DNA of 41,870 nt from Oscillospiraceae bacterium (GCA_015064925.1 SVRH01000002.1:1-41870); one strand, 5' to 3'. Counted from the first letter of the stretch, positions 15,074 to 36,770 are shown. Made by a program: numbers and translations. Notes: generated from the sequence alone by a model not told the origin.

Positions 15074-15619
15074 ATGAAAGCAACCGGAATTGTGAGAAGA
15101 ATCGATGACCTTGGACGTGTTGTCATTCCGAAGGAAATCAGAAGAACGATGAGGATCCGCGAGGGGGATCCGCTGGAGATCTATACCGACCGTGAGGGCG
15201 AGGTCATTTTCAAGAAATATTCCCCCATCGGTGAGCTAAACACCTTTGCTGGGCAGTATGCCGAAACCCTTTATAAGACCTGTGATCTGTCGGTGATCAT
15301 CTGCGACCGCGACACCGTCATCGCCTGCGCTGGTGTACCCAAGCGCGATTTTCAGGACAAGCGTATCTCCGCCGAGACCGAGTCGGTCATTGACGGACGC
15401 ACCGTCTATCGCTCAAACGGTACAAGCCCCTTTTCGCCAATCACGGATAACACGGAATACGCAGTGGCATGCATGATGCCCATACTCGCGGAAGGCGACG
15501 TCATTGGATGCGTTGCCAACCTCCTGCCGGCAGAAGGCACCCGTCTCACCCCCACCGAGATCGAATGTAAGCTGGTGGAAAGCGCAGCGGGATTTCTCGG
15601 GCGTCAGCTGGAGCCCTAA
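15074..15619 (+). CDS. spoVT: stage V sporulation protein T (AbrB-fold N-domain plus GAF-like C-domain)
   Basis: 181 aa: MKATGIVRRIDDLGRVVIPKEIRRTMRIREGDPLEIYTDREGEVIFKKYSP..., with a C-terminal domain of the right length. Confidence 0.92.
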   Translation: MKATGIVRRIDDLGRVVIPKEIRRTMRIREGDPLEIYTDREGEVIFKKYSPIGELNTFAGQYAETLYKTCDLSVIICDRDTVIACAGVPKRDFQDKRISAETESVIDGRTVYRSNGTSPFSPITDNTEYAVACMMPILAEGDVIGCVANLLPAEGTRLTPTEIECKLVESAAGFLGRQLEP

Positions 15620-15630
15620 CAGATCAAAAG

Positions 15631-15664
15631 CAAAAGAGAGCCTTTGTTGAAAGGCTCTCTTTTC
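15631..15664. terminator. bidirectional terminator shared by spoVT and the micro-ORF operon
   Basis: 13-bp stem AAAGAGAGCCTTT-gttg-AAAGGCTCTCTTT (15633-15662), with A/T runs on both sides. Confidence 0.85.
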
Positions 15665-15670
15665 AAGTCA

Positions 15671-15781
15671 TTACCACTGGATGCTGGGTATATCCTCCTC
15701 GTCGCCGGGGCTCAAGGTCAGAATATCTTCCTTAGCAAACACTTCAACAGTTACTTCGGGCATTTCAAAAAACTTCTTCAT
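15671..15781 (-). CDS. unannotated 36-aa micro-ORF, paralog of 34753..34866
   Basis: My reverse-complement translation gives MKKFFEMPEVTVEVFAKEDILTLSPGDEEDIPSIQW*. GAGGAGGA lies about 9 nt upstream. The ORF starts 27 nt after the stop of 15809..17650. It has a conserved paralog with only synonymous changes in the core. Confidence 0.8.
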   Translation of the reverse strand: MKKFFEMPEVTVEVFAKEDILTLSPGDEEDIPSIQW

Positions 15782-15808
15782 GGGTATCAATCCTCCTCTT
15801 GCTCAAAA

Positions 15809-17650
15809 TCAGTTATTGATGATGTTGCCGTTTTCGTAGACAACAGTTACTGTCTTTCCGTATACGGTCACACCTCCGCCGGTGACAGCGGTGGGTGTTA
15901 CTTCAAATGTAAATCTTCCCTCAGTGGGAACACCTGTGATCGCATATCCGAACAGGTACGAAAAATCTTCGATCAAATGTGCGCCTGTTTCCTCGGAAAC
16001 CGAGCCAACAGTAGTGACAACAGGCTTCATTGTGCCGTTCACTGCACCTCTGAAGGTTTTGTAAACGCTTGTAGCCGCCTTGCTATAGGTCTTATCGGTT
16101 TCTACCACGTGCACAGAAAAGTCGACGTTTTTGTACTCCAGATCGGAAACGCCACCGATGAAACGGATACCGTTATCGCCCTTCTGTTCGCCAACGAGCT
16201 TGATCAGGTTATCGAAGGTTGCTTCGTTATCGTCTGCCCAGGTCTTAATGGTAGCAGATTCATAGCTCTTGATTACAAGGCCTTCGGGAAGAACATACTC
16301 TTCGGTATCTTCCACAAAACAATACAAGAAAGTTTCGCCATAGTCTTCGGTGATCTCAAGATCGGGGGACATGACTGTCAAAGTTTTCAAATTCACACAC
16401 TCGGAAATTGCAAGCTCATGAACAGTTTTCACAGATTCCGGAATGCGAATGTCTGTAACGGTGCTGTTTTCATAGAATACACCATAATATTCATATCGCT
16501 TACCGACCTTCTTTTCTTCGCCGTACAGAGAAACAACGGTATATTCTTTACCGTCAGTACCGATAGTGCCGTCGCCACGGATGGTGGAGGGAATGGTAAC
16601 TTCAGACGCAGATCCGGTATAAAGGATCAGCTCTGCAGTGGCAGCCTCTTCGTCAAGAACCGCCCATTCGTAGGGAAGAACGGTGGAAACAGTGCCGGCC
16701 ACATATTCTTTAACAAACAGCGGAACGGTTTCGGTGGCATCCTCACCGTATGCCTTAAAAGGATCGCTGCCAAAAGGAGTTACAACAAAGGTATCGTCGT
16801 CATCCAGAGGAGTCACAACGGTAAACACCAGTTCAAAGATCCGGAAGTCATCGGTAGGTGCTACTGCATTTTCAAAGCCACCTGCAAAGCCGAGGCTAAA
16901 GGATCTTGCCACGGGGAGCACCGTAACATAAGACTCATTATTGCCCTTGATAGCAAATTCCTTGCTGGCATAGGGATCGATCTCTACCTTATCGGCTGCT
17001 GTTCCGCTTATCGAGAAGGAAAGCTGCGTACAGGAAGCAAGCTTACCGTTGCTGGCGCTGATCATCACAGGCACGCGAATGGTCTTATCACCCACATAAG
17101 CCACAGTGTCGGCCACGCTGACGGTCACGGGATCATAGCGGGTAACATACAGCTTTGCACCCTCGAAGGACACATTTCCGCTGGCGGAGGTGCCGTCTTC
17201 CCAACGCAGAACTTCACTAAAATCTGCGGATACAGAAAGAGACAAATCGTAGACATCTCCGTCCTTGGCGTCCTCGGGAATAGTCACTTTGATGGTAAAA
17301 TACGTTTCGGGGGTGAAGCTTCCCACTCCACACGCAAAACTGAACGAACCATTATCGTTTACAACGCCTGCGCCGCCCCCCTCAGGCATAGGGGTTGCGG
17401 AAATGGCAGTGGTTTGGTTTATCGCTGCTTCGCCGGCAGATATAGTCGCCTGGAACTGCTGAATATTCTTTCCGTTTGTGTTCTTAAAGCCGACCTTTAC
17501 AGCAACCGTTTCACCGGGCTTGCCGTACACGTCCTCCATGACGTAGATCGTCGGCGTAGTATCCTCTGCGGTAGCTGTCAGCGCCGTTGCGGGCACGCAG
17601 GCAAGCACCATCAGAAGAGTTAGCACAAATGAGAGTATGCGTTTTCTCAT
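15809..17650 (-). CDS. secreted multidomain surface protein (cohesin-like modules plus BspA-type LRR region plus C-terminal domain shared with 34887..36770)
   Basis: MRKRILSFVLTLLMVLACVPATALTATA-EDT is a signal peptide. IYVMEDVYGKPGETVAVKVGFKN..FQATIS and VTVSVADTVAYVGDKTIRVPVMISA look cohesin-like. EVTIPSTI..IRIPESVKTVHELAISECVNLKTLTV looks like LRR_5. Domain names are tentative. Confidence 0.75.
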   Translation of the reverse strand: MRKRILSFVLTLLMVLACVPATALTATAEDTTPTIYVMEDVYGKPGETVAVKVGFKNTNGKNIQQFQATISAGEAAINQTTAISATPMPEGGGAGVVNDNGSFSFACGVGSFTPETYFTIKVTIPEDAKDGDVYDLSLSVSADFSEVLRWEDGTSASGNVSFEGAKLYVTRYDPVTVSVADTVAYVGDKTIRVPVMISASNGKLASCTQLSFSISGTAADKVEIDPYASKEFAIKGNNESYVTVLPVARSFSLGFAGGFENAVAPTDDFRIFELVFTVVTPLDDDDTFVVTPFGSDPFKAYGEDATETVPLFVKEYVAGTVSTVLPYEWAVLDEEAATAELILYTGSASEVTIPSTIRGDGTIGTDGKEYTVVSLYGEEKKVGKRYEYYGVFYENSTVTDIRIPESVKTVHELAISECVNLKTLTVMSPDLEITEDYGETFLYCFVEDTEEYVLPEGLVIKSYESATIKTWADDNEATFDNLIKLVGEQKGDNGIRFIGGVSDLEYKNVDFSVHVVETDKTYSKAATSVYKTFRGAVNGTMKPVVTTVGSVSEETGAHLIEDFSYLFGYAITGVPTEGRFTFEVTPTAVTGGGVTVYGKTVTVVYENGNIINN

Positions 17651-17688
17651 ACGTTACCATCCTTACTGTAAATTCACACAAGTACCCT

Positions 17689-17700
17689 AGTGTATACACT
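17689..17700. promoter_or_regulatory. perfect 12-bp palindrome at the predicted transcription start of the surface-protein operon
   Basis: AGTGTATACACT, located 4-15 nt downstream of the -10 hexamer at 17704-17709 (minus strand). Confidence 0.3.
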
Positions 17701-17703
17701 GTG

Positions 17704-17732
17704 ATTATATCACGCGAAATTTGCCGTGTCAA
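17704..17732 (-). promoter_or_regulatory. consensus sigma-A promoter of the surface-protein/micro-ORF unit
   Basis: Minus strand reads TTGACA (17727-17732), a 17-nt spacer, then TGA-TATAAT (-10 at 17704-17709). Confidence 0.65.
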
Positions 17733-17795
17733 GAGTAATAATTATATTTTTTCTGAATTTTTGCATTTTTACCGATAAAAAAGGGAGTTAGGGAT

Positions 17796-17833
17796 ACAAA
17801 ACAAAAGAGCTGCCGCAGCTTGCGACAGCTCTT
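17796..17833 (-). terminator. rho-independent terminator ending the alpha operon after rplQ
   Basis: AAGAGCTG...CAGCTCTT stem (17805-17833), followed on the minus strand by TTGTTTTG. Confidence 0.75.
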
Positions 17834-17840
17834 ATTCTAC

Positions 17841-18224
17841 TTATTCAGCCTTTTCGTCCTTCTTGGCTTCGGTCTTTTCCTCACCAATCAGCTTGATCAG
17901 TGCCATTTCGGCACCGTCGCCACGACGGGGACCCAGCTTGTAGATGGTGGTGTAACCACCGTTTCTATCAGCGTATTCGGGTGCGATGGTGGAGAACAGC
18001 TTGGTGACAACGTCTTCCTTGGTGATAAAGGCCAGCGCCTGGCGGCGGGCAGCAAGAGTATTCTTCTTGCCAAGTGTGATCATTTTCTCGGTGAGTGCGC
18101 GCACTTCCTTAGCTCTGGTGAGAGTGGTCTCGATGGAACCGTTCTCCAGAAGGAATGTTACCATGCCTCTGAGCATCAGGTTTCTGTGTGCCGTCGGTCT
18201 GCCGAGTTTTCTGGTTCCGGGCAT
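17841..18224 (-). CDS. rplQ: 50S ribosomal protein L17
   Basis: [21 protein letters not shown].. Follows rpoA. GGAGG RBS. Confidence 0.97.
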
Positions 18225-18258
18225 TTCAGGTACCTCCTAATCAATTAGTGCTTGGAAG

Positions 18259-19209
18259 TCAGTCCTCTTCACGCTTGAGATCCAGTCCCAAGCTGTGAAG
18301 CTTCTGAATGACTTCTTCCAAAGATTTCTTACCGAGGTTTCTGACCTTGATCATATCCGATTCGGTCTTCTTGGTCAGATCCTCAACTGTGTCAATGCCT
18401 GCACGCTTCAAGCAGTTGAAGCTTCTTACAGACATGTCAAGCTCCTCAATAGTCATCTCCAGGACTTTTTCCTTGATGGTTTCCTGACTTTCAACCATAA
18501 ACTCTGTTCTTCTCGCATCGTCTGTGAGATTTACAAACAGATTGAAATGCTCATTGAGAATCTTGGCGCCGAGAGATATTGCCTCTTTGGCGGAAATGGT
18601 TCCGTTGGTCAATACCTCAAAAGTCAGCTTATCGTAATCAGTGATATTGCCCACACGAGTGTTCTCCACACGGTAGTTCACATTGTACACAGGAGTGTAG
18701 ATGGAGTCGGTGTAGATCACACCGATGGCAGACTGATTGTTCTGCTTGTTCTTATCCTGAGATACGTAACCACGTCCGTGGTCAAAGGTGAGCTCCATGT
18801 AGAAATGTGTGCCATCGGAAAGAGTGGCAAGGTGATGGTCGGGATTCAGGATCTCGATCTCACTGTCGGGCTTGATACTGCCTGCGGTTACCTCGCAGGG
18901 TCCGACCATGTCGATGACAACGGTCTTTCTGCCTTCGCTATACAGCTTGGCAACAATGCCCTTCACGTTCAGAACGATCGCAGTTACATCTTCCTTGACG
19001 CCGGGGATGGTAGAGATCTCGTGGAATACTCCGTCGATCTTGATGCTCACCACGGCTACACCGGGAAGAGAACTGAGAAGGACTCTGCGCAGCGAGTTTC
19101 CGAGGGTGGTTCCGTATCCGCGTTCCAGAGGCTCCACGACGAATACGCCGTGCTTACCGTCTTCGCTCAGATCTTCCGAAACTATATTGGGCTTCTCTAT
19201 CTCAATCAT
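18259..19209 (-). CDS. rpoA: DNA-directed RNA polymerase subunit alpha
   Basis: 316 aa: MIEIEKPNI...[27 protein letters not shown]. Confidence 0.97.
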
Positions 19210-19299
19210 TCAATAGTTCCTCCTTATAAATTTACGCATAACTGCAGGGATTGCTGTTTTCGTACGACAATCTTAGGTATTGTCGATAGAAGGGAGGGA

Positions 19300-19926
19300 T
19301 TACTTCGAGTACAACTCGACGATAAGCTGTTCCTGGAAATCGAAGTCGATGTCGCTTCTCTCAGGAATAGCAACCACCTTTGCGGTGAGGTTTTCCTTAT
19401 CTACTTCCAGCCACTTGGGTGCCTTGTTGGTCTGTACCTTTTCGATCAGTTCCTTGATCTTTGCGGACTGCTTGCTCTCTTCACGAACAGACAGTACATC
19501 GCCGACCTTCAGGATGATAGAGGGTACGGATACCTTCTTGCCGTTCAGTCTTACGTGAGCGTGCAGAACCAGCTGACGAGCTTCCTTGCGGCTCTCTGCC
19601 AGACCCATTCTGTACACGGTGTTGTCAAGACGACGCTCCAGCAAGCTCAGCAGGTTTTCACCGGTTACGCCTGCGGTCTTTTCAGCCTTGGTGAAGTAGG
19701 TTCTGAACTGCTTCTCAGCTACGCCGTAGTATCTCTTAGCAGTCTGCTTTGCACGCAGCTGCATGCCGTATTCCTTCAGCTTCTTGTTTGCTGCGCCGTG
19801 CTGGCCGGGTGCTGCACCTCTACGGTCAACAGCGCACTTGCCGGTCAGGCAACGTTCGCCCTTCAGATACAGCTTCTTGCCTTCTCTGCGGCAGAGTCTG
19901 CATGCGGGACCTGTATATCTAGCCAT
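19300..19926 (-). CDS. rpsD: 30S ribosomal protein S4 (Zn-ribbon type N-terminus)
   Basis: MARYTGPACRLCRREGKKLYLKGERCLTGKCA... Confidence 0.97.
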   Translation of the reverse strand: MARYTGPACRLCRREGKKLYLKGERCLTGKCAVDRRGAAPGQHGAANKKLKEYGMQLRAKQTAKRYYGVAEKQFRTYFTKAEKTAGVTGENLLSLLERRLDNTVYRMGLAESRKEARQLVLHAHVRLNGKKVSVPSIILKVGDVLSVREESKQSAKIKELIEKVQTNKAPKWLEVDKENLTAKVVAIPERSDIDFDFQEQLIVELYSK

Positions 19927-19950
19927 TTCTAGTTCCTCCTTGTAATTTGA

Positions 19951-20346
19951 TCAGACACGTCTACGCTTAGGCGGTCTGCATCCGTTGTGAGGGATGGGGG
20001 TTACGTCCTTGATCATGGTCACTTCCAGACCTGCGGTCTGCAGTGCGCGAATCGCGGATTCTCTTCCGGGTCCGGGACCCTTTACATAGACTTCAACAGT
20101 CTTCATGCCCTGATCAGCAGCCAGCTTGCCTGCGGTTTCAGCAGCAGTCTGAGCGGCAAAGGGAGTAGACTTTCTGGAGCCCTTAAAGCCCATTTCACCG
20201 GCAGACGCCCACGATACTGCATTACCGTTCAGATCGGTAATGGTAACAATGGTGTTGTTGTAGGTAGAACGGATATGTGCTGCGCCTTTTTCAACGTTCT
20301 TTTTCTCGCGGCGCTTTCTGACTACCTTCTTTGTTGTCTTAGCCAT
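19951..20346 (-). CDS. rpsK: 30S ribosomal protein S11
   Basis: ..[30 protein letters not shown].. Confidence 0.97.
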
Positions 20347-20365
20347 TTTTTCTCGCTCCTTTACC

Positions 20366-20734
20366 TTATTTCTTCTTGTTAGCGATGGTCTTTGCGGGAC
20401 CTTTTCTGGTTCTTGCGTTGGTCTTGGTTCTCTGACCTCTTACCGGCAGACCCTTTCTGTGACGGATACCGCGGTAGCAGTTAATTTCTACCATTCTCTT
20501 GATATCCAGTGCAACGTCACGACGGAGGTCACCTTCTACTGTGTAATGAGCTTCGATCTCATCACGGATCTTCGCTACGTCCTCATCGGTCAGATCCTTT
20601 GCGCGCTTGTCGGGGTCAATTCCGGTTCTTGCCAGAATATCGTTAGCGCTCTTTCTGCCGATACCGTAGATATAGGTCAGTGCGATTTCGATTCTTTTCG
20701 AGTTGGGAATATCTACACCTGCTATACGAGCCAT
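20366..20734 (-). CDS. rpsM: 30S ribosomal protein S13
   Basis: [26 protein letters not shown].. Confidence 0.97.
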
Positions 20735-20798
20735 TCTGTAATATCACTCCTTATTTTGGAATAGGTACTGTCGTACCGTCATGTTTTCGGTCTTGCGA

Positions 20799-20912
20799 TT
20801 AGCCCTGCTTCTGCTTGTGCTTGGGGTTTTCGCAAATAACCATTACTTTACCTTTACGCTTAATGATCTTGCACTTTTCGCAGATCTTCTTAACCGAGGG
20901 TTTAACCTTCAT
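20799..20912 (-). CDS. rpmJ: 50S ribosomal protein L36
   Basis: Not in the ORF track (37 aa). My translation is [37 protein letters not shown]. Confidence 0.95.
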
Positions 20913-20968
20913 AGTTTTACACCAGCCCTTTCTTTCGTGGTGGTATTTCTTCGGTAGAACCGAAGTCC

Positions 20969-21208
20969 TTATTTACCGCGCCAGACGATACGGCCCTTGG
21001 TCAGGTCGTAAACCGACACCTCAACCGTTACCGTGTCACCCGGCAGTATCCAGATATAATTCATACGAAGCTTGCCCGAAATATGTGCGGTCACCATGTG
21101 GCCGTTGGGCAGCTTGACTTTGAAGGTGGCATTGGGAAGTGCTTCCACGACCGTGCCTTCAAATTCAATAACGTCATCCTTTGGCAGAACAATCCCTCCT
21201 ACTCTCAT
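20969..21208 (-). CDS. infA: translation initiation factor IF-1 (start codon uncertain)
   Basis: ..[70 protein letters not shown]. The track ATG at 21208 has no SD, and a GGAGGG lies inside codons 4-5. The canonical 72-aa length would start at the CTG at 21185-21187. Confidence 0.9.
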
Positions 21209-21461
21209 TCATCTCTTGACGGGCGATCGCCGCTCTGATCGCAGAATCACTCAGATTGCCTTCGTTGATCGCGGTCATCAGCGCATCGTCCCGGTGGGAG
21301 AGGAACTTTATATGCTTTAACTTTTTCGCTTTGGGCTTTTCCACCCTTCGTGTCTTACCGTCACAGAGATAGACAATGCCCTTCTCTGCGTCGCTTGCCA
21401 CGATCACATGAACCCGCCCTTTGTCTCTTCCGGAGAGCGACAACACAAACTGTCCCGTCAT
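21174..21461 (-). CDS. small KOW-domain protein (conserved map-infA spacer gene in Clostridia)
   Basis: [51 protein letters not shown].. is KOW-like (G-x-DKG). The call rests on position and motif only. Confidence 0.6.
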
Positions 21462-21471
21462 GTTGCCTCCG

Positions 21472-22224
21472 TCAATCGACCTTTGTCAAAAGGATCGGTC
21501 CGTCATCGGTCAGTGCCACGGTGTGCTCGTAGTGAGCAGCCATACTGCCGTCGACGGTCACGACCGTCCATTTGTCGGACAGAACACGCACCTTTGCCGA
21601 GCCCGCGCACACCATCGGCTCAATGGCGATGGTCATGCCGGGGCGTAGGCGAAATCCGTGTCCCGGAACTCCATAGTTTGGCACATTCGGATCTTCATGC
21701 AGCTCGCTGCCGATCCCGTGACCCACAAATTCGCGAACCACACTGAATCCACAGCTAGTAACATGCCCTTCGATCGCTGCACCCACGTCGCCGAGTCTTG
21801 CGGTAGCCGTTACCATCTCCAGCCCCTTATAGAAGCTTTCCTTGGTTGCCTCCACCAACGCCTTGGTTTCGGGGGCTACGTTACCCACAAGAAAGGTATT
21901 TGCGCTATCACCGTGATAACCGCGGTAGAACGCACCCACGTCGATCTTCACAATGTCGCCGTCCTGTAAAATACGGCTCGCAGAGGGAATGCCGTGGATC
22001 ACCTCTTCGTTGATGCTGATGCACGCCGATCCGGGAAATCCGCCATATCCGAGGAAGCTGGGCTTTGCTCCCTGCTTCTCTATATAATGACGCACAATGT
22101 CATCCAAATACTTCGTGCTGACCCCTGCTTTGACGTGTTCGCCGGCAAGCGCGAGCGCTTCGCCCGTGATCCTGCCCGCTTCCTTCATCGCCTGGATCTG
22201 CGCACTGGTTTTTAATCGGATCAT
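21472..22224 (-). CDS. map: type I methionine aminopeptidase
   Basis: 250 aa: ..NEEVIHGIPS..GDIVKIDVGA..GYHGDSA.., FVGHGIG..HE.., AIEPM.. Confidence 0.95.
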   Translation of the reverse strand: MIRLKTSAQIQAMKEAGRITGEALALAGEHVKAGVSTKYLDDIVRHYIEKQGAKPSFLGYGGFPGSACISINEEVIHGIPSASRILQDGDIVKIDVGAFYRGYHGDSANTFLVGNVAPETKALVEATKESFYKGLEMVTATARLGDVGAAIEGHVTSCGFSVVREFVGHGIGSELHEDPNVPNYGVPGHGFRLRPGMTIAIEPMVCAGSAKVRVLSDKWTVVTVDGSMAAHYEHTVALTDDGPILLTKVD

Positions 22225-22227
22225 TGC

Positions 22228-22869
22228 TTATTTGCCTTCGCTGTCGATCACGCCGTATACCAACGCAGAGATCTCGTCCACGCTGCCGACGCCTTCGATC
22301 AGCTTCAGTTTACCGGTTCCGGCATAATAATCCTTGATCGGTTCGGTCTGGGTATGGTAGGTCATCAGACGATCCTTGACCACTTCGGGCTGGTCGTCTC
22401 TGCGCAGGGTCAGCGCAGTTCCGTCCTTGTCACAGGTCTTACCGTCCGCAGAGGGATTGTAAAGAACGTGATAGGAGGCTCCGCACTTGTCGCAGACACG
22501 TCTGCCGCTCATGCGTTCAACGATGGTCTCATCGCTGACCTCCAGGCTGATCACAAGGTCGATGCGGACGCCCATTGCGTCCAGCGCCTGTGCCTGGGGA
22601 ACCGTTCTGGGGAAACCGTCGAGGATGAAGCCGTTTTGGCAATCATCTTCAACCAGTCTTTCTTTGATGATACCGATGACTACTTCATCGGGAACGAGTG
22701 CTCCCGCATCGGTATACTGTTTGGCGGCAAGTCCCATGGGAGAGCCGTTCTTAATGGCAGCACGGATGATCGCACCGGTGGAGATGGCGGGAATGCCATA
22801 CTTGGCACTGACCTTTTCAGCCTGAGTGCCCTTGCCGGCGCCGGGTGCGCCAAGAAAAATAATGTTCAT
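22228..22869 (-). CDS. adk: adenylate kinase (Cys3-Asp lid)
   Basis: MNIIFLGAPGAGKGTQA.. P-loop. Lid is CDKCGASYH..GKTCDKDG. Confidence 0.96.
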   Translation of the reverse strand: MNIIFLGAPGAGKGTQAEKVSAKYGIPAISTGAIIRAAIKNGSPMGLAAKQYTDAGALVPDEVVIGIIKERLVEDDCQNGFILDGFPRTVPQAQALDAMGVRIDLVISLEVSDETIVERMSGRRVCDKCGASYHVLYNPSADGKTCDKDGTALTLRRDDQPEVVKDRLMTYHTQTEPIKDYYAGTGKLKLIEGVGSVDEISALVYGVIDSEGK

Positions 22870-22931
22870 AGATTTCTCCTCTATTCGTCGGGACCCTTCG
22901 GAGCGCTTATCGCGCTCCGAGCGAGTCTTTT

Positions 22932-27781: not shown

Positions 27782-27795
27782 TTTCGAGTTCCTCC

Positions 27796-28110: not shown

Positions 28111-28124
28111 ATTTCGTTACCTCC

Positions 28125-28493
28125 TTACAGTACTTCGGGAGCCAGAGACAGGATCTTCAGATAATCCTTCTCACGGAGCTCTCTTGCTACCGGCCCAAAG
28201 ATACGGGTACCCTTGGGGTTCTTGTCTTCCTTGATGATAACTGCTGCGTTATCATCGAAACGAATGTAAGAGCCGTCGGCACGCTTGATGCCCTTTACGC
28301 TTCTTACGATTACAGCCTTAACAACGTCGCCCTTCTTCACCTGTCCGCCGGGAGCTGCCTTCTTAACGGTAGCAACTACCACGTCGCCGATATTGGCATA
28401 TCTTCTGCCGGTACCGCCGAGCACGCGGATGCACATGAGTTCCTTGGCGCCTGTGTTGTCGGCAACTTTCATATAAGATTGCTGTTGAATCAC
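28125..28493 (-). CDS. rplN: 50S ribosomal protein L14
   Basis: [27 protein letters not shown].. Confidence 0.97.
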
Positions 28494-28539
28494 AGTGCTA
28501 ATCCTCCTTATTCAATACGGACTTTGTCGTACCTACTGA

Positions 28540-28806
28540 TTATTTAGCTTTTTCGATAACGGTTACCAGTCTCCATCTCTTGGTCTTGGACAGGGGTCTG
28601 GTCTCCATTACTTCTACGGTATCGCCCACGGTGCATTCGTTGTTTTCATCGTGTGCGTGAATCTTGATGGTTCTGTTCATAACCTTACCAAAGAGGGGAT
28701 GCTTTACCTTGTCGGCAATGGCAACCACGATGGTCTTGTCCATCTTGTTGGACACAACCTTACCTACTCTGGTCTTACGCAGATTGCGTGCATTTACTTC
28801 ACTCAT
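28540..28806 (-). CDS. rpsQ: 30S ribosomal protein S17
   Basis: ..[27 protein letters not shown].. Confidence 0.97.
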
Positions 28807-28824
28807 GACTTATCTCCTTTCGGT

Positions 28825-29013
28825 TTACGCGTTCTTTTCCTGAAGAACGGTCATCACACGTGCGATATCTTTCTTCACAGCGGTGATCTTGTGGGGATTG
28901 TCGAGCTGGTTGATGGCAAGCTGGAAACGGAGATTGAACAGTTCTTCCTTGAGTTCCTTGAGCTTGGCTTCCAGCTGTTCGGAAGTCAGTTCTCTGATTT
29001 CTTTTGCTTTCAC
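28825..29013 (-). CDS. rpmC: 50S ribosomal protein L29
   Basis: [31 protein letters not shown].. Confidence 0.97.
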
Positions 29014-29016
29014 TGC

Positions 29017-29439
29017 TTATACCTCCTCGGTTTGTTCCTTGGCAACAAACTTGCACTTGATGGGCAGCTTGTGGGAAGCAAGACGCATAGCTTCCTTAGC
29101 CACATCAGGCGCAACGCCGTCCATCTCAAACATGATTCTGCCGGGCTTGACAACTGCTACCCAGTATTCGGGCGAACCCTTACCGGAACCCATTCGGGTT
29201 TCAGCAGGCTTTTCTGTGATGGGCTTATCGGGGAAAATCTTGATCCATACCTGACCGCCACGCTTGATGTAACGGGTCATTGCGATACGGGCTGCTTCGA
29301 TCTGGTTGCTGGTGATCCATGCGGGCTCCAGTGCAACGAGGCCGTAGGAACCGTTGGTAATGGTGTTACCTCTGGTTGCCTTTCCCTTCAGTCTTCCGCG
29401 CTGAACTCTGCGGAATTTAACTCTCTTGGGCATTAACAT
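29017..29439 (-). CDS. rplP: 50S ribosomal protein L16
   Basis: [25 protein letters not shown].. Confidence 0.97.
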
Positions 29440-30266
29440 TATTTATTGCCCCCTTCCTTGTTCGCGGGCTTGTTGCCGCCGAAACGGCGTTCGCCGCCGG
29501 GACGACGGTCGCCTGCGGGACGACGGTCACCATTGTTTCTGCGGTCGCCTCTGCGATCGTTTCTGCGATCGCCTCTGCGATCGTTTCTCTGGGGAACCTG
29601 TTCCTGAGGACGGTAGGTGGTGAAGTGCTTCTTCACGTCCGGCAGAACTTCGCCCTTGAAGATCCATACCTTAACACCGATCTTACCGTAGGTGGTGTTT
29701 GCTTCCCAGAAGCCGTACTCGATGTCTGCACGGATGGTCTGCAGCGGGATGGTACCCTCGTGATAGTGTTCGGTTCTTGCGATTTCAGCACCGCCCAGAC
29801 GGCCGGATACTGCAACCTTGATACCCTTCGCACCCAGTCTCATGGTGCGACCGATTGCCTGCTTCATAGCACGGCGGAAGGAAGTTCTCTTTTCCAGCTG
29901 CAGCGCGATGTTCTCTGCTACCAGCTGAGCGTTCATGTCGGGAACCTTTACTTCCATTACGTTGATAGCAACGGGCTTACCAACGATTGCTTCTACTTCT
30001 GCACGCAGCTTTTCGATTTCAGCACCGCCGCGACCGATCACCAGACCGGGCTTTGCGCAGTGGATGAATACCTTAACTCTGTGAGCATCTCTTTCGATCT
30101 CAATCTTGGGGATGCCTGCTTCCTGCAGCTTGGACTTCAGATATTTTCTGACTTTGTTATCAGATACGAGAGTGTCGCCGAATGTTTCATCGGATGCGAA
30201 CCATCTCGAATCCCAGTTCTTAATAACTCCCACACGAAGACCGTGAGGATTTACTTTCTGACCCAT
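29439..30266 (-). CDS. rpsC: 30S ribosomal protein S3 with about 58-aa Arg/Asp/Gly-rich C-terminal extension
   Basis: [23 protein letters not shown].. is the core S3. The tail is ..[48 protein letters not shown]. Confidence 0.96.
29499..29585. repeat. short tandem repeats encoding the GDRR-type tail of S3
   Basis: gggacgacggtc occurs at 29499 and 29517. tctgcgRtcgYY occurs four times across 29538-29585. Confidence 0.8.
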
Positions 30267-30286
30267 GAATCTTTAACCTCCTTTTC

Positions 30287-30622
30287 TTAGTCTCTTTCTT
30301 TTACCGCGATGGTTACGTGGCTGGTTCTTTTCAGAATGCGGTCTGCGCTTCCTCTTGCTCTGGGCATCATTCTTTTCAGAGTGGGGCCGGGGCATACAAA
30401 GCATTCAGATACATACAGCTTGCTCTTATCCATGCCGAAGTTGTTTTCAGCATTTGCAACTGCAGAATTCAGAAGCTTGATAAGATATTCAGAAGCTGAC
30501 TTGTGGGTGTTCTTCAGAATACCCATTGCCTCATCTGCGTTCTTGCCGCGGATCAGGTCCAGCACAATGCACACCTTGCGGGGAGAAATTCTAGCATATT
30601 TCAGATACGCTCTTGCTTCCAT
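30287..30622 (-). CDS. rplV: 50S ribosomal protein L22
   Basis: MEARAYLKYARISPRKVCIVLDLIRGK.. Confidence 0.97.
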   Translation of the reverse strand: MEARAYLKYARISPRKVCIVLDLIRGKNADEAMGILKNTHKSASEYLIKLLNSAVANAENNFGMDKSKLYVSECFVCPGPTLKRMMPRARGSADRILKRTSHVTIAVKERD

Positions 30623-30665
30623 TTGTAATTGCCTCCCTTCGCCTTATTTGCGAAATTCTACTTTC

Positions 30666-30947
30666 TTATTTACCGTTGTTGGATGTTTTGGAACCTGCGT
30701 GACCCTTGAAGGTTCTGGTGGGTGCGAATTCACCCAGCTTGTGTCCCACCATGTCTTCGGTGACATATACCGGAACGTGCTTCTTGCCGTCGTGTACGGC
30801 AATGGTGTGTCCCACAAATTCCGGGAAAATAGTGGAAGCTCTCGACCAGGTCTTGATCACTCTTTTCTCGCCGGCGTTGTTCATAGCCACAATGCGGCCA
30901 AACAGCTTCGCTTCGACAAAAGGTCCTTTTTTAAGGCTTCTGCTCAT
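30666..30947 (-). CDS. rpsS: 30S ribosomal protein S19
   Basis: [15 protein letters not shown]..,..[29 protein letters not shown].. Confidence 0.97.
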
Positions 30948-30965
30948 ATCATTTGTCTCCTTCCA

Positions 30966-31796
30966 TTACTTTCCGTTTCTGCGTTTTACGATGAACTTAT
31001 CGGTTCTTGCCTTCTTGTTACGGGTCTTGTAACCCAGAGCAGGCTTGCCCCAAGGTGTAACAGGGCCGGGACGACCGATGGGGGATCTACCTTCACCACC
31101 ACCGTGGGGGTGATCACAGGGGTTCATTACGGAACCGCGAACGGTAGGACGGATACCCTTATGACGAGTCTTACCTGCCTTACCAACCTTGACCGTATCG
31201 TGCTCGATGTTGCCAATCTGACCGATGGTTGCCTTGCAATCCAGACGAACCAGACGAACCTCACCGGAGGGAAGACGAACCTGAGCCATGCCGTTTGCCT
31301 TTGCCATCAGCTGCGCTGCAGCACCTGCGGAACGAACCAGCTGGCCGCCCTTGCCGGGGTAGAGCTCGATGTTGTTGATCATGGTACCAACGGGGATGTT
31401 GGCGATGGGCAGAGTGTTACCGGGCTTGATGTCAGCATCGGCTGCGCTGTAGATCACGTCGCCGTCGGTCAGACCAACGGGAGCCAGAATGTAGCTTCTG
31501 GTGCCATCTTCGTATTCTACCAGTGCAATGTAAGCGGTTCTGTTGGGGTCGTACTCAACGCCGATTACCTTTGCTGCGCCTTCAGTCTGACGCTTGAAGT
31601 CGATAATTCTGTACTTCTTCTTGTTACCGCCGCCGTGATGACGAACGGTGATGCGACCGTAGCTGTTACGGCCTGCCTTGCTTTTCAGGGTAACTGTCAG
31701 CTTCTTTTCGGGGCTGAACTTGGTTACTTCCTCGAAGGAAGGAACGGTCATGCCTCTTCTACCGGGAGTGGTAGGCTTATAAATCTTTACTGCCAT
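30966..31796 (-). CDS. rplB: 50S ribosomal protein L2
   Basis: [17 protein letters not shown].., ..[15 protein letters not shown].. Confidence 0.97.
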
Positions 31797-31813
31797 GTTA
31801 CTTCACTCCTTCC

Positions 31814-32110
31814 TTACATCATACCCTCGAAGAACTCGATGGTCTTGGAGTCAGCGGTCAGAGTAACGATCGCTTTCTTCCATGCGGAGGTGTAACCCTC
31901 GTTCATGCCGAGTCTCTTGGGCTTTCTCTTCATGTTGATTACGTTGACGCTGGCAACCTTTACCTTGAAGGCTTCCTCAACCGCCTTAGCGATCTCGGGC
32001 TTGGTTGCGCTCTTTGCTACCTCGAAGGTGTACTTCTTTTCGGTAGCGATTCTTGCCATACTGTCCTCGGTAATAACGGGACGGATGATAATATCGTAAG
32101 ATGTTTTCAT
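31814..32110 (-). CDS. rplW: 50S ribosomal protein L23
   Basis: [24 protein letters not shown].. Confidence 0.96.
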
Positions 32111-32823
32111 GCTCCGTATACCTCCTCGAGCTTCTTGACAGCGGCTTCGGTGATGATCACCTTTTCAGCGTTCAGGATCTCGTAAACGTTGATCGTGCTG
32201 CTGAGGGTGGTGGTTGCGGTGGGGATGTTTGCGCAGCTCTTTACTACCTTTGCATCTACTGCATCGGTTACGATCAGGGTCTTGGCAGCTACCTTGTGCT
32301 CTGCACTCTTCACTGCGCTTACCTTTTCGCCTGCTTCGTTCTTTTCCCAAACCTTATAGTTGTTGGAAACAGTCTTGGTTGCACCCAGAGCTTCCAGCAT
32401 AGCGACCATGGTCTTGGTCTTGAACTCGGTTGCCTGGATGGAGTCAACAACCACCAGCGCGTTGTTTGCTACCTTATCGGACAGTGCGCTGACCATTGCT
32501 ACCCGCTTAGTCTTCTTGTTGAGATTGATGCGATAGGTTCTGGGCTTGGGGCCGAGAGCGATACCGCCGTGTGTCCACTGGGGAGCTCTGGTAGAACCCT
32601 GTCTTGCTCTACCGGTTCCCTTCTGTCTCCAGGGTTTCTTACCGCCACCGGAAACTTCGGTGCGGGTCAGAGTGGACTGAGTACCCTGTCTCTGATTCAT
32701 CAGATAGGCTCTGACTGCGGAATGAAGAACTGCGCCGTTTACTTCTGCGCCGAACACTTTGTCAGACAGTTCGATCTGGCCGACTTCCGCGCCTTGCATA
32801 TTCAAAATCTTTACGTTAGGCAT
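32107..32823 (-). CDS. rplD: 50S ribosomal protein L4 (about 30-aa internal insertion)
   Basis: ..[27 protein letters not shown].. The ORF is 238 aa, against about 207 aa remembered for Bacillus L4. Confidence 0.96.
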
Positions 32824-32841
32824 CGTGTGTCCTCCTTCCGA

Positions 32842-33471
32842 TTATGCTTTTACAGCGTTGCGGATGAATACGATACCGCCCTTGGCACCGGGAACGGCAC
32901 CCTTTACGGCGATCAGATTCTTTTCCGCGTCGATTTTTACTACTTCCAGGTTCAGAACGGTGACCTGTTCGTTACCGTACTGACCGGGCATCTTCTTGTT
33001 CTTAAAGATTCTCGCAGGGTCGATAACACCCATAGAACCGGGCTGACGGTGGATAGGGCCGGTACCGTGAGTCATGCGAAGGATCGCAGTTCCCCATCTC
33101 TTAACAGTACCCGAATATCCGCGACCTTTGGTCACACCGGTAATGTCGACCTTTTCACCTGCCGCAAAGATGTCAGCGGTGACGGTTTCGCCAATGCTGT
33201 AACCGGAGATGTCCTCCAGACGGAATTCCTTCAGGTGCTTCTTGGGAGCACTGCCTGCCTTCTTGAAGTGACCTGCAGCAGGCTTGTTTGTGTGTTTTGC
33301 AGCCAGATCCTGGAAGCCCAGCTGAATGGCTTCGTAGCCGTCGGTCTCCACAGTCTTGATCTGTGTTACCGCGCAGGGACCTGCCTCAATTACGGTTACG
33401 GGAATGGCATTTCCCACTTCATCGAAGATCTGAGTCATACCGATCTTCTTGCCAATGATACCCTTTTTCAT
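32842..33471 (-). CDS. rplC: 50S ribosomal protein L3
   Basis: [33 protein letters not shown].. Confidence 0.97.
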
Positions 33472-33570
33472 GATTTTGTTCCTCCTGTTTTAGTTATTGG
33501 TTGACGGACGGGTACCCGCCAACATGACATAAAACTTTCTGTCGCGTGGTAGAAAGCGTAAGCTGCTTGA

Positions 33571-33882
33571 TCAAAGCTTAACTTCCAGTTCCACACCGGC
33601 GGGAAGTTCGAGACCGGAAATAGCATCCACAACCTTCTGTGTGGGCTTAACGATGTCAATCAGTCTCTTGTGAGTGCGAAGCTCAAACTGTTCGCGGCTG
33701 TCCTTATACTTGTGGACTGCACGCAGGATGGTTACGACTTCCTTTTCGGTGGGAAGCGGAATGGGACCGGATACGGTAGCGCCGTTTCTCTTGGCTGCTT
33801 CCACGATCTTTTCTGCCGCCTGATCGATCAGGGTGTGGTCATAGCTCTTCAGCTTGATTCTCAGTGTTTCCTTAACTGCCAC
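33571..33882 (-). CDS. rpsJ: 30S ribosomal protein S10
   Basis: GTG start (33880-33882), with GGAGG 9 nt upstream. [35 protein letters not shown].. Confidence 0.97.
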
Positions 33883-34134
33883 TTTGTTTTGCCTCCTTTT
33901 ATATTTTGGGGCGTGGGAACCGCTCTACGACCGCATTTTCTCAATACACTTTCCCGTGTGTTTCACGGTGCTTCCTTAAGAAAACCGAATTTCGGGGCAT
34001 GGGTTCACTGCTACGAAATCCGGGTCGAATGGATAGGTTCATTCTTTGTTCGCCCGTTCTACGGACATACTCCACGAAAATTCCCTGCGGCACTGCGCAG
34101 CAACCTTTCGCTTCATCGCACATCAAGCCTTGCC

Positions 34135-34163
34135 AGTATACCATATGCACAATTTTTTGTCAA
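34135..34163 (-). promoter_or_regulatory. consensus sigma-A promoter of the S10-spc-alpha super-operon
   Basis: Minus strand reads TTGACA (34158-34163), a 17-nt spacer, then TGG-TATACT (-10 at 34135-34140). Implies a leader of about 245 nt before the rpsJ GTG. Confidence 0.6.
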
Positions 34164-34327
34164 TACTTTTGTGCAATATTTTTGAAAAAAATTTTGAAAT
34201 ATTTTCACAATTTACAATTTGTTCACAATTACACACTACGTCCCTTTTTCTGCCCTCATCCGCCGGACCGCTCTATGCAGTCTTTGCACCAATTATCATT
34301 TTTTGGTACATAAAATGTTTTTTGCTA

Positions 34328-34356
34328 TTGACATCCGATCGACAAAATGCTACAAT
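34328..34356 (+). promoter_or_regulatory. consensus sigma-A promoter of abrB
   Basis: TTGACA (34328-34333), a 17-nt spacer, then TACAAT (34351-34356). Sits 66 nt before the ATG at 34423. Confidence 0.65.
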
Positions 34357-34422
34357 ATTTATACAAAGTAAAATCACAATACCCTCGCGGTAAATTTATA
34401 ACAACAGGAGAGGTACATCAAC

Positions 34423-34671
34423 ATGAAATCTACCGGTATCGTTCGCCCCATTGACCAACTCGGCAGAGTCGTACTGCCCAAGGAACTGCGTGAAAACCTC
34501 GGCATCAGCCCCAAGGACAGTCTGGAGGTTTTCGTTGAAAACGAAAAGATCATCCTCAAGAAGTACGCCCCCAACTGCTGCTTCTGCGGCAACGACGAGG
34601 ATATGAACCTTTATCAGGGCAAGCTGATCTGCAAGGCGTGCATCCGCAAGCTCGCAGCCCTCGCTGAATAA
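34423..34671 (+). CDS. abrB: AbrB-family transition-state regulator (clostridial type with Cys-rich C-terminus)
   Basis: MKSTGIVRPIDQLGRVVLPKELRENLGISPKDSLEVFVENEKIILKKYAPNCCFCGN...KLICKACIRKL. GGAGAGG RBS. Confidence 0.9.
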   Translation: MKSTGIVRPIDQLGRVVLPKELRENLGISPKDSLEVFVENEKIILKKYAPNCCFCGNDEDMNLYQGKLICKACIRKLAALAE

Positions 34672-34677
34672 CAAGCA

Positions 34678-34706
34678 CAAAAGCTCCGCTTTGCGGAGCT
34701 TTTTTC
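34678..34706 (+). terminator. rho-independent terminator of abrB
   Basis: AAAAGCTCCGC-ttt-GCGGAGCTTTTTT. Confidence 0.8.
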
Positions 34707-34710
34707 GTGC

Positions 34711-34748
34711 AAACAAAAAGCAGACGGATTTTCCGTCTGCTTTTGTTT
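34711..34748 (-). terminator. rho-independent terminator of the F5/8-protein/micro-ORF unit
   Basis: GCAGACGG-aaaat-CCGTCTGC stem (34720-34740), followed on the minus strand by TTTTTGTTTG. Sits 5 nt after the micro-ORF stop. Confidence 0.8.
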
Positions 34749-34752
34749 TTAA

Positions 34753-34866
34753 TTACCACCCGATCTCGGGGATATTCGTAGAGTCTCCGGGGCTCAGTGT
34801 CAGAATGTCCGCTTCCTCAAAAAGAGTTACGTTTACTTCAGGAGCTTCAAATACTTTCTTTTCCAT
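34753..34866 (-). CDS. unannotated 37-aa micro-ORF, paralog of 15671..15781
   Basis: My reverse-complement translation gives MEKKVFEAPEVNVTLFEEADILTLSPGDSTNIPEIGW*. AAAGGAGA lies 8 nt upstream. The ORF starts 20 nt after the stop of 34887..36770. Confidence 0.8.
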   Translation of the reverse strand: MEKKVFEAPEVNVTLFEEADILTLSPGDSTNIPEIGW

Positions 34867-34886
34867 GTTTACAGTCTCCTTTCAAA

Positions 34887-36770
34887 TCAACCCTGCACGA
34901 ACATCTGCCACTCAGAGAACTGAACCACGTCCAGCCCCACGCCATCCTTGCCGTTGTTGGAAAGGACCGCCAGTTTATAGTAGCCGTATGCGGTGGTGTT
35001 TTCAAATTCGTAGGTGTACAGCATATTTCTGGCGGGCATATCCTCGTCGGTACGCTTATCCAGCTCTACCCAGTTTTCGCCGTCGGTGGAGCCGTAGAGG
35101 ATCCAGTCCTTAGGGTCTCTGGGATCGTGGTCGTTGGCAGAACCGATCTTGTACATATTGACAGCTGCAGCCTCTTCCAGCTGTACGGAAACCCACAGAG
35201 AGGTCACGTGTGCAACGCATGCCTTGGTGCCGAGATCGCCGTCGAACAGCTTGGCAAGACCTTCGCCGCCCTCAACGGCAGCGTCGCCTGCCACGGTTGC
35301 GGTATTCACGGCAACCTTGTTTTCCTTGGGTGCTTCTGCGCTGGAAACGAACAGCTGCCATTCGGAGAACTGAACCACGTCCATCCCCACGCCGTCCTTG
35401 CCGTTGTTGGAGGTAACAGCCAGCTTGTAGTAGCCGTATGCGGTGGTGTTTTCGAAGTTATAGGTGTACAGCGTGTTTCTTGCGGGCAGATCTTCGTTGG
35501 TGCGCTTGTCCAGCTCTACCCAGTTTTCGCCGTCGGTGGAGCCGTAGAGGATCCAGTCCTTAGGGTCTCTGGGATCGTGGTCGTTGGCAGAACCGATCTT
35601 ATAAGTATTGACCGCAGTGGGCTTCTTCAGCTGAACGGAAACCCACAGAGAGGTCACGTTGACGATGCAAGCCTTGGAGCCGAGCTCGTTGTCAAACAGC
35701 TTGCCAACGCCCTGGCTACCGTCCACAGCCGCGTCGCTCTGAATGGTGGATGCGTCCACTTCAACCTGTGTTTCCACGATGTCGGAGGGAACGTCCAGCG
35801 CAAACAGCTGCAGCTCCTGGAGCTGGAGAATGTCATTGTCCCAAGGGTCGATGCCGAAGTTTGCATCGATTACCAGCTTGTAGAACTGATATGCGGTAGC
35901 GTTGTCAAGGGTGTAAACATAAGTGCCGTTTCTTTCAGCAAAGGGAGCTTCGTTGCTCTGAGTATCCAGAACTGCCCATTCGTTGCCGTCAGCGGAACCA
36001 TACAGAGTCCAGCTCTTGGGGTCACGTACAGGCTGGTCTTCGCCGCTGATCATAACGTATTCAACAAGGGTTTCAGCCTGATCCAGTTCCCAAGCGATTT
36101 CCAGAGGTCTGGTGTCGAATTCGCACATCTTTTCGCTGAGGCTGTTATCGAAGATCTTTGCAATCTTGGAAAGGTCACCGTTGGTGGTGATCTTGTTCGC
36201 CTTTACGTATACCTGCTTGGTAGCAACAGGTTCGGGATCAACGGGAGGCTCGGGATCAACGGGAGGCTCGGGATCAACGGGGGGTTCGGGCTCAACGTAC
36301 TTTTCGGCGGTTACAACGCCGTCCTCGACGCTGACGCTCAGCTTGGCAGCCTCGCCGGTCAGGGTTTCTTCACCGTTTACTGCCACGGGGGTCACTTCAA
36401 ACACGTATTCGCCATCGGTGATGCCAACAAGGGCAAAGCCGTACAGATAATCGTGTTCCACAACGATTGCGTCACCTTGTGCTTCCTTGGTGGTGGCAAC
36501 TGCCTCTTCACCACTGAACAGGGTGTTGAACACCTTGGTGGTGCTGAAGCTCTTTTCCTTGGTCGCGTCACCGGTGACGGTCAAGGTAAAACCAATGGAG
36601 TCATACGAAAGATTGTCGGTGTAGCCGATCAGTCTCAGCGCACGTTCTCCCTCTTGCATACCTGCAAAGCCGAAATCGACGGTCGTTTCCTCTGCGGAAG
36701 CCACAAACGCAGCGGGCAGCAGGGACAGAACCATCAAAACGGCAAGTACAAGTGTAATGGATCTTCTCAT
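34887..36770 (-). CDS. secreted protein with N-terminal domain shared with 15809..17650, PEPPVD linker and three F5/8 type C (discoidin/CBM32-like) domains
   Basis: MRRSITLVLAVLMVLSLLPAAFVASA-EET is a signal peptide. Three repeats follow the pattern ..KLFDN/G.LG.K.C..........W..V.L......N.Y.I.SANDHDPRDPKDWILYGS.DGENWVELD.., typical of discoidin domains. Confidence 0.8.
   Translation of the reverse strand: MRRSITLVLAVLMVLSLLPAAFVASAEETTVDFGFAGMQEGERALRLIGYTDNLSYDSIGFTLTVTGDATKEKSFSTTKVFNTLFSGEEAVATTKEAQGDAIVVEHDYLYGFALVGITDGEYVFEVTPVAVNGEETLTGEAAKLSVSVEDGVVTAEKYVEPEPPVDPEPPVDPEPPVDPEPVATKQVYVKANKITTNGDLSKIAKIFDNSLSEKMCEFDTRPLEIAWELDQAETLVEYVMISGEDQPVRDPKSWTLYGSADGNEWAVLDTQSNEAPFAERNGTYVYTLDNATAYQFYKLVIDANFGIDPWDNDILQLQELQLFALDVPSDIVETQVEVDASTIQSDAAVDGSQGVGKLFDNELGSKACIVNVTSLWVSVQLKKPTAVNTYKIGSANDHDPRDPKDWILYGSTDGENWVELDKRTNEDLPARNTLYTYNFENTTAYGYYKLAVTSNNGKDGVGMDVVQFSEWQLFVSSAEAPKENKVAVNTATVAGDAAVEGGEGLAKLFDGDLGTKACVAHVTSLWVSVQLEEAAAVNMYKIGSANDHDPRDPKDWILYGSTDGENWVELDKRTDEDMPARNMLYTYEFENTTAYGYYKLAVLSNNGKDGVGLDVVQFSEWQMFVQG
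34901..35800. repeat. tandem duplication, 2 x about 450 bp (second and third discoidin domains)
   Basis: 34901.. aligns with 35351.. at offset 450. 35061-35150 is identical to 35511-35600 (90 bp). The flanks are more diverged. Confidence 0.85.
36228..36299. repeat. 4 x 18-bp tandem repeat encoding the (PEPPVD)n linker
   Basis: aggYtcgggatcaacggg three times, plus one degenerate copy. Confidence 0.85.

Follow-up and report, generated by a model that had tools for sequence, protein, structure and literature searches.

What is the unit that occurs twice around the ribosomal block of an Oscillospiraceae genome? In the stretch analysed here (GCA_015064925.1 SVRH01000002.1:1-41870; 41,870 nucleotides, referred to as the window), the block bounded by rpsJ (33571-33882) and rplQ (17841-18224) is flanked on each side by a gene of the AbrB fold, a micro-open reading frame (micro-ORF) and a gene for a secreted multidomain protein. 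A preliminary description of the window had interpreted this three-gene layout either as an old segmental duplication of a module or as a functional link in which convergent transcription or AbrB-type control acts on a surface protein plus peptide pair. The layout itself was confirmed: every feature listed there was found at its coordinates on either side of the block, hairpins were detected in both gaps between the convergent genes by a terminator scan, and a six-frame search of the window yielded no third ORF of the AbrB fold besides spoVT and abrB. The repeated unit, however, is probably a two-gene cassette in two old paralogous copies, encoding a Sec-secreted, fast-evolving protein with a domain here named domain X and an acidic peptide of 36-37 amino acids. 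Each cassette has its own promoter and terminator. On the sequence comparisons described below, spoVT and abrB are best seen as bystanders, conserved origin-proximal residents at two insertion points, with terminators insulating the cassettes from them. By analogy with distant relatives, the cassette peptides are most likely precursors of a type that is pheromone-like or depends on a recognition element for peptides that are made on the ribosome and modified after translation (RiPP recognition element, RRE).

The two-gene cassette

Both cassettes lie on the minus strand. The peptide gene of cassette 1 (15671-15781) encodes MKKFFEMPEVTVEVFAKEDILTLSPGDEEDIPSIQW, 36 amino acids counted from the ATG, and has the ribosome-binding site GAGGAGGA (15798-15791). 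The gene for secreted protein 1 (15809-17650) encodes 613 amino acids comprising a signal peptide, weak cohesin-like and BspA-LRR regions, and a C-terminal domain X (15818-16240; residues ~471-611, from a hidden Markov model match to 471-611), a beta-sandwich. The promoter that had been proposed at 17704-17732 on this strand scored 12/12 in a promoter scan and is a perfect sigma-A-type site (TTGACA-17-TATAAT with an extended TG). Because a terminator was detected 3' of rplQ (17805-17833, minus strand; terminator scan), cassette 1 constitutes its own transcription unit. In cassette 2, the peptide gene (34753-34866) encodes MEKKVFEAPEVNVTLFEEADILTLSPGDSTNIPEIGW, 37 amino acids, with the ribosome-binding site AAAGGAGA; this peptide is identical to database entry P0001, which is present on at least 16 contigs. 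Secreted protein 2 (34887-36770; 627 amino acids) contains a signal peptide, an N-terminal domain X (36288-36698; residues ~25-161, from a model match to 25-161 and BLASTP against protein 1), a PEPPVD linker and three F5/8 type C (discoidin) domains. The site proposed as its promoter (36813-36841, minus strand; TTTACA-17-TAGTAT with TG) is promoter-like and weaker, scoring 9/12.

The resemblance between the two loci is narrowly confined. The peptides are 63% identical over 35 amino acids and are the only such copies in the window, and the DNA match between the loci is restricted to the peptide ORFs (112 nucleotides, 69%). Each micro-ORF is located 18-27 nucleotides 3' of a gene for a protein with a signal peptide. 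The two large proteins share only domain X, of ~110-130 amino acids (32% identity, E 9e-12), and similar Sec signal peptides, protein 1 having domain X in its C-terminal part and protein 2 in its N-terminal part. An AlphaFold2 model of domain X was all-beta, with a predicted local distance difference test score of 70.7 and a predicted template modelling score (pTM) of 0.67 from a shallow alignment of 6 sequences. The model is only moderate because the alignment is shallow and few relatives were matched, searches of protein databases with domain X returning just 1-4 short matches. A Foldseek comparison of this model with the PDB matched only generic Ig-, FN3- and CBM-like sandwiches, and neither sequence search nor Foldseek found a specific relative of domain X or of the peptide in the PDB.

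Constant pairing of domain X with a narrow peptide family

A profile built from both peptides was found to match 64 protein clusters of 36-41 amino acids with an invariant FExP..F...DILTLS core and variable tails that are nevertheless nearly always Trp-terminated. No Pfam or NCBIfam model matches either this narrow family or the wider family described below. Over the 23-codon core of 13 genes, pairwise codon differences were 489 synonymous versus 515 nonsynonymous, and 21/23 third positions were variable, versus 12 first and 9 second positions; this third-position-biased variation indicates that the micro-ORF is selected as a protein.

In 12/12 narrow-family cassettes, domain X is present in the protein encoded directly upstream and co-directionally. 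These comprise the two cassettes of the window and those at the loci L003, L007, L011 (two), L014, L104 (two), L105, L107 and L110. The remaining domains of the partner proteins differ, being cohesin, LRR_5, F5/8 type C, GDSL lipase or none recognised. With domain X constant and the other domains varying, the conserved unit is therefore the domain-X protein plus the peptide. The surface protein and peptide pair of the preliminary description thus holds, and so does its duplication: nine or more positions on the chromosomes of related organisms carry it, invariably with the domain-X protein first and the peptide after it. In sequence searches of genomes and metagenomes, the cassette is known only from a narrow uncultured lineage. 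Among GTDB genomes, the exact DNA pattern for DILTLS was found in one metagenome-assembled genome only (L001, L002), and in metagenomes of the Joint Genome Institute it matched four stretches, two of them falsely (L102 and L103).

The loci of the narrow family vary in their surroundings. The whole cassette is tandemly doubled in L104 (649-4286), at the abrB-adjacent position of a related species, and in L011 (499-6114). In L007 (1485-6114), the cassette comes after a gene for a 1209-amino-acid MACPF-Big_3-cohesin-dockerin protein, the cohesin domain of which is 45% identical to that of the domain-X protein. GerE-type regulators (~415-429 amino acids) are encoded beside narrow-family cassettes at two unrelated positions, L110 (497-6137) and L003 (4154-5401), and L110 also has genes for an HTH_3-TPR protein and an S24/S26-like protein close by.

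Modelled alone with AlphaFold2, the peptide showed no fold (pTM 0.20), as would be expected of a leader-type peptide. A fusion of protein and peptide by stop-codon read-through was considered and rejected, since two in-frame stops separate the two ORFs at locus 1 and the frames differ at locus 2. An analogy with donor-strand complementation in pilins, for which the support consisted of very weak Foldseek matches only, was also dropped.

A wider family of leader-type peptides

What are these peptides? A wider profile search yielded 160 clusters at E<1e-3, all of 30-82 amino acids, in which a hypervariable tail comes after the consensus M-K-K-x-[FY]-E-x-P-E-x-x-[VI]-x-x-F-x-x-x-D-[IV]-[IL]-T-x-S. 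In alignments of the wide family, a leader of ~25 residues is conserved, its E, P, F, D, T and S positions at 90% or more, and the tails are without conservation; this combination of a conserved leader and a hypervariable C-terminal tail is a RiPP-type feature. The N-terminal part of the peptide is both acidic and amphipathic, with a pI of 4.1 and a net charge of -6.5. The tails have a median length of 14 amino acids, are rich in Gly, Asp, Pro and Glu and have a net charge of around -3; Lys, Arg and Cys are all but absent from them. An [LIT]-P dipeptide occurs in 60/116 tails. The tails of the window peptides, which after the S of the motif read PGDSTNIPEIGW and PGDEEDIPSIQW, start with Pro-Gly-Asp and end in [IL]-P-x-I-x-W. 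Some tails bear what we took to be a likeness to the SSB C-terminus or to PapR, which was set aside.

The genomic context of the wider family was sampled in at least 115 genome stretches of 8 kb matching a degenerate DNA pattern of the leader motif, and all counts given for this family here and below apply among the matches listed. The matches come from Lachnospiraceae, Oscillospiraceae, Ruminococcus, Acutalibacteraceae, Faecousia, some Synergistaceae and others. The upstream neighbour is co-directional in 86/96 loci and ends 120 nucleotides or less from the peptide start in 73/96 (~76%). Most complete upstream neighbours carry a signal peptide or lipoprotein signal, and their Pfam domains (Flg_new, GLUG, Big_2, LRR_5) are of clostridial surface-protein types. 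One cluster of C-terminal domains occurs in 30/73 of the upstream proteins and a second in 11/73, and profile comparison with hhalign found neither to be related to domain X. Downstream neighbours are diverse, with 86 families in 88 proteins. A peptide subgroup (L135, L167, L176, L218) has as its upstream partner a lipoprotein of ~200 amino acids, not a large surface protein. DUF1980_C matches were also observed in three partner proteins of the sampled set as a whole. A literature search found no description of the peptide family or of its operon, and the names of Pfam and NCBIfam models gave none of the operon either.

A maturation-type operon and the proposed processing

About one quarter of the wider-family loci contain a compact operon, recognised by searching the fetched loci with proteins of L114, L195, L210 and L220. 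Among the matches listed, it contributes an HprK-like (P-loop) kinase in 26 loci, PqqD in 23/115, an S24/S26-type peptidase in 24, an ATP-binding cassette (ABC) exporter in ~20 and an NTP_transf_5 nucleotidyltransferase in 16, the HprK-like P-loop protein being the single recurring downstream family. Most often, the surface-protein gene is followed, in this order, by genes for the peptide, a small membrane protein or lipoprotein, the kinase, PqqD, the peptidase, the exporter and the nucleotidyltransferase, as in L122, L127, L142 (4691-7998), L146, L187, L196, L207 (5191-7999) and L212, with L122, L142, L187 and L207 showing a fixed order. PqqD is a RiPP recognition element, and the best NCBIfam matches of the operon's PqqD proteins were lasso PqqD chaperones, below cut-off. 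In L114 (66-5928), three tandem peptide genes (at 2481, 2639 and 3107) are situated between genes for an AgrC-like histidine kinase and a LytTR regulator on one side and kinase, PqqD, peptidase and nucleotidyltransferase genes on the other. Tandem peptide genes without a surface protein were found in L114, L190 and L200.

The conserved leader, the variable tail and the maturation operon near relatives are the reasons for which the peptides are read as precursors of processed, exported peptides. In such a scheme, a PqqD-type chaperone would bind the leader, the peptide might be phosphorylated or nucleotidylated, an S24/S26-type peptidase would remove the leader, and an ABC transporter would export the tail. 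In this organism, processing and export would occur in trans: the maturation genes would lie at another place in the genome and act for several precursor genes dispersed over it, and through co-transcription each tail peptide would be made together with one surface protein.

Several observations weigh against this scheme. No PqqD, kinase, peptidase or exporter gene was found in the 41.9-kb window, and of the narrow-family loci L110 is the only one with an S24/S26-like gene in its vicinity, so that processing in trans has to be assumed. The narrow family has Pro-Gly, not Gly, after the TxS motif, and the cleavage site is only putative. Gene calling in the fetched loci was crude, and relatedness is ignored in the counts of loci. 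Moreover, the scheme gives no reason for the peptide genes to trail surface-protein genes.

Does the peptide act on its surface protein?

Alternatively, the peptide might act directly on the co-encoded surface protein and not as an independent signal or RiPP-like product. It could serve as a cytoplasmic export or holding chaperone or, once exported, provide domain X with a ligand or a complementing strand. The strict pairing speaks for such a role: the narrow family always accompanies domain X, other subfamilies pair with the two unrelated C-terminal domain clusters (30/73 and 11/73 of the listed upstream proteins), the two genes are tightly spaced and co-transcribed, and both protein and peptide are fast-evolving. 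However, the protein is exported by Sec but the peptide has no signal peptide, L114, L190 and L200 have peptide genes in tandem with no surface protein, and the co-occurrence with PqqD, peptidase and exporter genes points to a processed, exported product. A direct action is considered a live but rather unlikely alternative, although reading the peptides as precursors does not itself explain why peptide subfamilies track particular C-terminal domains.

On a bolder reading, Clostridia of the gut and rumen would possess a new peptide system that depends on an RRE and is defined by these peptides, with the HprK-like kinase, PqqD, S24/S26 peptidase, ABC exporter and nucleotidyltransferase as its maturation genes, no lasso cyclase having been found, with precursor genes at the 3' ends of surface-protein operons, subfamilies matched to C-terminal domains, and an exported tail that serves as a cognate ligand, tag or signal. 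This proposal is speculative and is put forward with considerable reserve; we know of no described precedent for a cognate pairing of tail peptide and surface protein. If the tails are indeed exported, modified and matched one-to-one with surface proteins, they would be candidate signals, or candidate ligands of surface proteins, in the communities of gut and rumen. In any case, a large unannotated family of leader-type micro-peptides is present in Lachnospiraceae, Oscillospiraceae, Ruminococcus and relatives, mostly behind surface or adhesin genes, and consists of real genes largely overlooked by present annotation.

Are spoVT and abrB part of the unit?

The two AbrB-fold genes are true representatives of their families. 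The product of spoVT (15074-15619, plus strand, convergent with cassette 1; 181 amino acids) contains both an AbrB-type N-domain (Pfam MazE_antitoxin, 6.5e-11) and a SpoVT_C GAF-like domain (8.5e-37), as is characteristic of SpoVT. The product of abrB (34423-34671, plus strand, convergent with cassette 2; 82 amino acids; MazE_antitoxin, 9e-13) has the swapped-hairpin N-domain and falls in the ~80-95-amino-acid size class; of its 562 relatives, the 80 that were kept are 54-64% identical to it. Its C-terminus forms a four-Cys motif (CCFCG...CKAC) with a weak zinc-ribbon match, which is kept in the L104 and L028 orthologues. A terminator hairpin with a 14-bp stem (15632-15663), usable from both sides, lies between spoVT and peptide gene 1, and two terminator hairpins (34679-34703 and 34716-34744; terminator scan) lie between abrB and peptide gene 2.

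The preliminary description had proposed comparative synteny as a check on a functional AbrB/SpoVT link, and the outcome does not support that link. The triad was found outside this genome only at two orthologous positions. In L105/L106 and L107-L109, as in the window, rplQ is followed by a domain-X protein, a peptide and then a convergent spoVT, and in L104 abrB is convergent with the peptide and domain-X protein, here as two tandem cassettes. In these loci, the housekeeping neighbours are 85-95% identical to those of the window and the surface proteins only 38-64%, which identifies them as cases of orthologous synteny with a fast-evolving cassette. SpoVT is 91% (L105) and 87% (L109) identical to its counterparts and AbrB 85% (L104), versus 64% (L105) and 54% (L107) for secreted protein 1 and 38% (L104) for secreted protein 2. 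An AbrB-fold neighbour is present at 2/9 cassette positions. The downstream neighbours at the other seven are unrelated, namely a GerE-type regulator, spermine synthase, GNAT, DUF6179, HTH_3, a membrane transporter, and pyrG or yabP-yqfD, the last belonging to the distant pair L001/L002. In the wider family, an AbrB-fold gene adjoins the peptide gene in 0/115 loci among the matches listed; in L117, a spoVT is located at a distance of 5 kb. Conversely, the peptide or domain X was found within 5 kb in 0/80 abrB loci from other genomes. In L028, abrB is divergent from rpsJ and there is no cassette.

A functional three-gene unit would imply either control of the operon by its neighbours AbrB and SpoVT, which are transition-state and forespore regulators, or a coupling of expression by convergent transcription across the terminators. 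Two features of the loci favour such a unit and count against a bystander status of the regulators. The convergent layout, with only 51-81 nucleotides from stop codon to stop codon, is found at both loci, and both adjacencies are kept in related species despite the divergence of the large proteins (L104; L105-L109). In addition, two AbrB-fold neighbours in one genome are improbable under a naive model of random placement, and there may be a selective reason for the arrangement. Against a functional unit stand the seven cassette positions without an AbrB-fold gene, the counts of 0/115 and 0/80, the strong hairpin terminators between the units and the perfect vegetative-type promoter of cassette 1. 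Chance adjacency is also raised by location. Firmicutes generally have abrB and spoVT close to the origin, as on the B. subtilis map. The window is placed within a few tens of kb of oriC by its steadily negative GC skew and by rsmG and the 3' part of mnmG at its right end (40334-41768, minus strand), and the ribosomal genes and both cassettes are co-oriented with replication. Adjacency to abrB and spoVT is less surprising if, as we infer, highly expressed cassettes favour origin-proximal, replication-co-oriented sites. Taken together, a functional three-gene unit appears improbable: coupling to AbrB or SpoVT is probably absent, and regulation of the cassette promoters by these proteins is a residual possibility. 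Such a link would have tied sporulation and transition-state control to surface display, and the evidence does not favour it.

That the micro-ORFs are not functional genes at all, being chance ORFs or conserved RNA or DNA elements at operon ends, is very improbable. They are indeed very short and missed by many annotations, and peptide 1 itself has no entry in the protein database. Their codon variation nonetheless shows conservation at the protein level, both have strong ribosome-binding sites, the 64 close and 160 distant protein clusters keep a fixed length and start, and the peptide gene recurs beside peptide-maturation genes.

Of the segmental duplication that had been proposed, the part concerning the protein and peptide pair stands and the part concerning the AbrB-fold gene falls: an ancient duplication of the whole block with later divergence of both copies would agree with the equal gene order and orientation and with the identity of the peptides (63%) and domain X (32%), but it can be dismissed with near certainty, because SpoVT and AbrB are universal, distinct, old orthologues of endospore formers (window AbrB shares 57% identity with Paenibacillus AbrB; the SpoVT N-domain shares 63% with the latter versus 55% over 51 amino acids with window AbrB), the cassette is restricted to a narrow lineage, and DNA likeness is found in the peptide ORFs alone.

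Other features of the window

Two further regions lie to the left of cassette 1. The first, at 3996-5991, is a low-GC island (0.37-0.41 versus ~0.52) that was possibly acquired horizontally; of its two minus-strand ORFs, one encodes ricin-B lectin domains. The second (9133-11910, plus strand) comprises genes for two proteins, one trigger-factor-C-like and the other an FKBP-type isomerase that carries a Big_2 domain. Domain X gave a weak tblastn match at 11161-11355, inside the FKBP domain, which was taken as chance.

Comparison with known systems

How do the peptides compare with known peptide systems? The closest likeness is to the lasso peptides of Firmicutes. In lasso clusters of this phylum (e.g., that of paeninodin), a YxxPxL...Tx leader is bound by a PqqD-type B1 protein, and an HPr-kinase-like kinase, a nucleotidyltransferase and an ABC exporter are often encoded as well. 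The [FY]ExPE.. leader described here is reminiscent of YxxPxL leaders bound by PqqD-type recognition domains; like lasso precursors, the peptides are short and have an [FY]xxPx(hydrophobic) leader, with Thr placed two or three residues ahead of the variable part, and the genes of their relatives adjoin those for PqqD, HprK-like kinase, NTP_transf_5 and ABC exporter. Leaders of ruminal lasso peptides, such as MTYNKPSFEKISSFKESTM, are similar in style (PMC7533575). Differences from lasso systems are a leader longer by two residues, the orphan status of most of the genes, which trail surface-protein genes, and the presence in the operon of an S24/S26 serine peptidase in place of a transglutaminase-like one. 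Among the fetched 8-kb stretches, none contains an ORF of more than 300 amino acids with the SGGxDS PP-loop of an Asn-synthetase-like cyclase. Transglut_core3 is absent from the top Pfam families of the neighbours, no search having been aimed at the B2 protease. The lasso core rule (Gly, Ala, Ser or Cys at position 1 and Asp or Glu at positions 7-9) holds for 29/116 tails, which is about the level expected by chance from composition. An identity as lasso peptides was rejected on account of the missing cyclase in the fetched loci and this chance-level agreement.

Two kinds of exported signalling peptide were also compared. With the Agr, Com and Blp pheromone loci, L114 shares tandem peptides, an AgrC-like kinase, a LytTR regulator and an exporter, and the products would likewise be short exported peptides; unlike in those loci, there is no double-glycine motif, C39 peptidase domain or AgrB, and the window has no kinase or regulator gene. 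Export through a double-glycine leader and a peptidase-containing ABC transporter was rejected, as the window peptides have S-P-G and the L220 exporter has no peptidase domain, the NHLP exporter model aligning to it only from position 137. The Sec-dependent pheromones (Phr, PapR, NprX) were rejected too, since the peptide N-terminus is acidic and has no signal peptide, and no TPR gene is present in the window.

The SpoVT/AbrB swapped-hairpin regulators enter the comparison only through the two neighbour genes, true members of that group that stand outside the conserved cassette. In genomic organisation, the prochlorosins offer a parallel: there, many dispersed ProcA precursors are served by a single ProcM. 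The present family, with a maturation operon that is seen in relatives and presumed for this genome, resembles them in its conserved leader, its hypervariable core and the scattering of precursor genes away from the enzymes, and differs from them in its enzymology and in the consistent position of its orphan precursors at the 3' end of a surface-protein gene.

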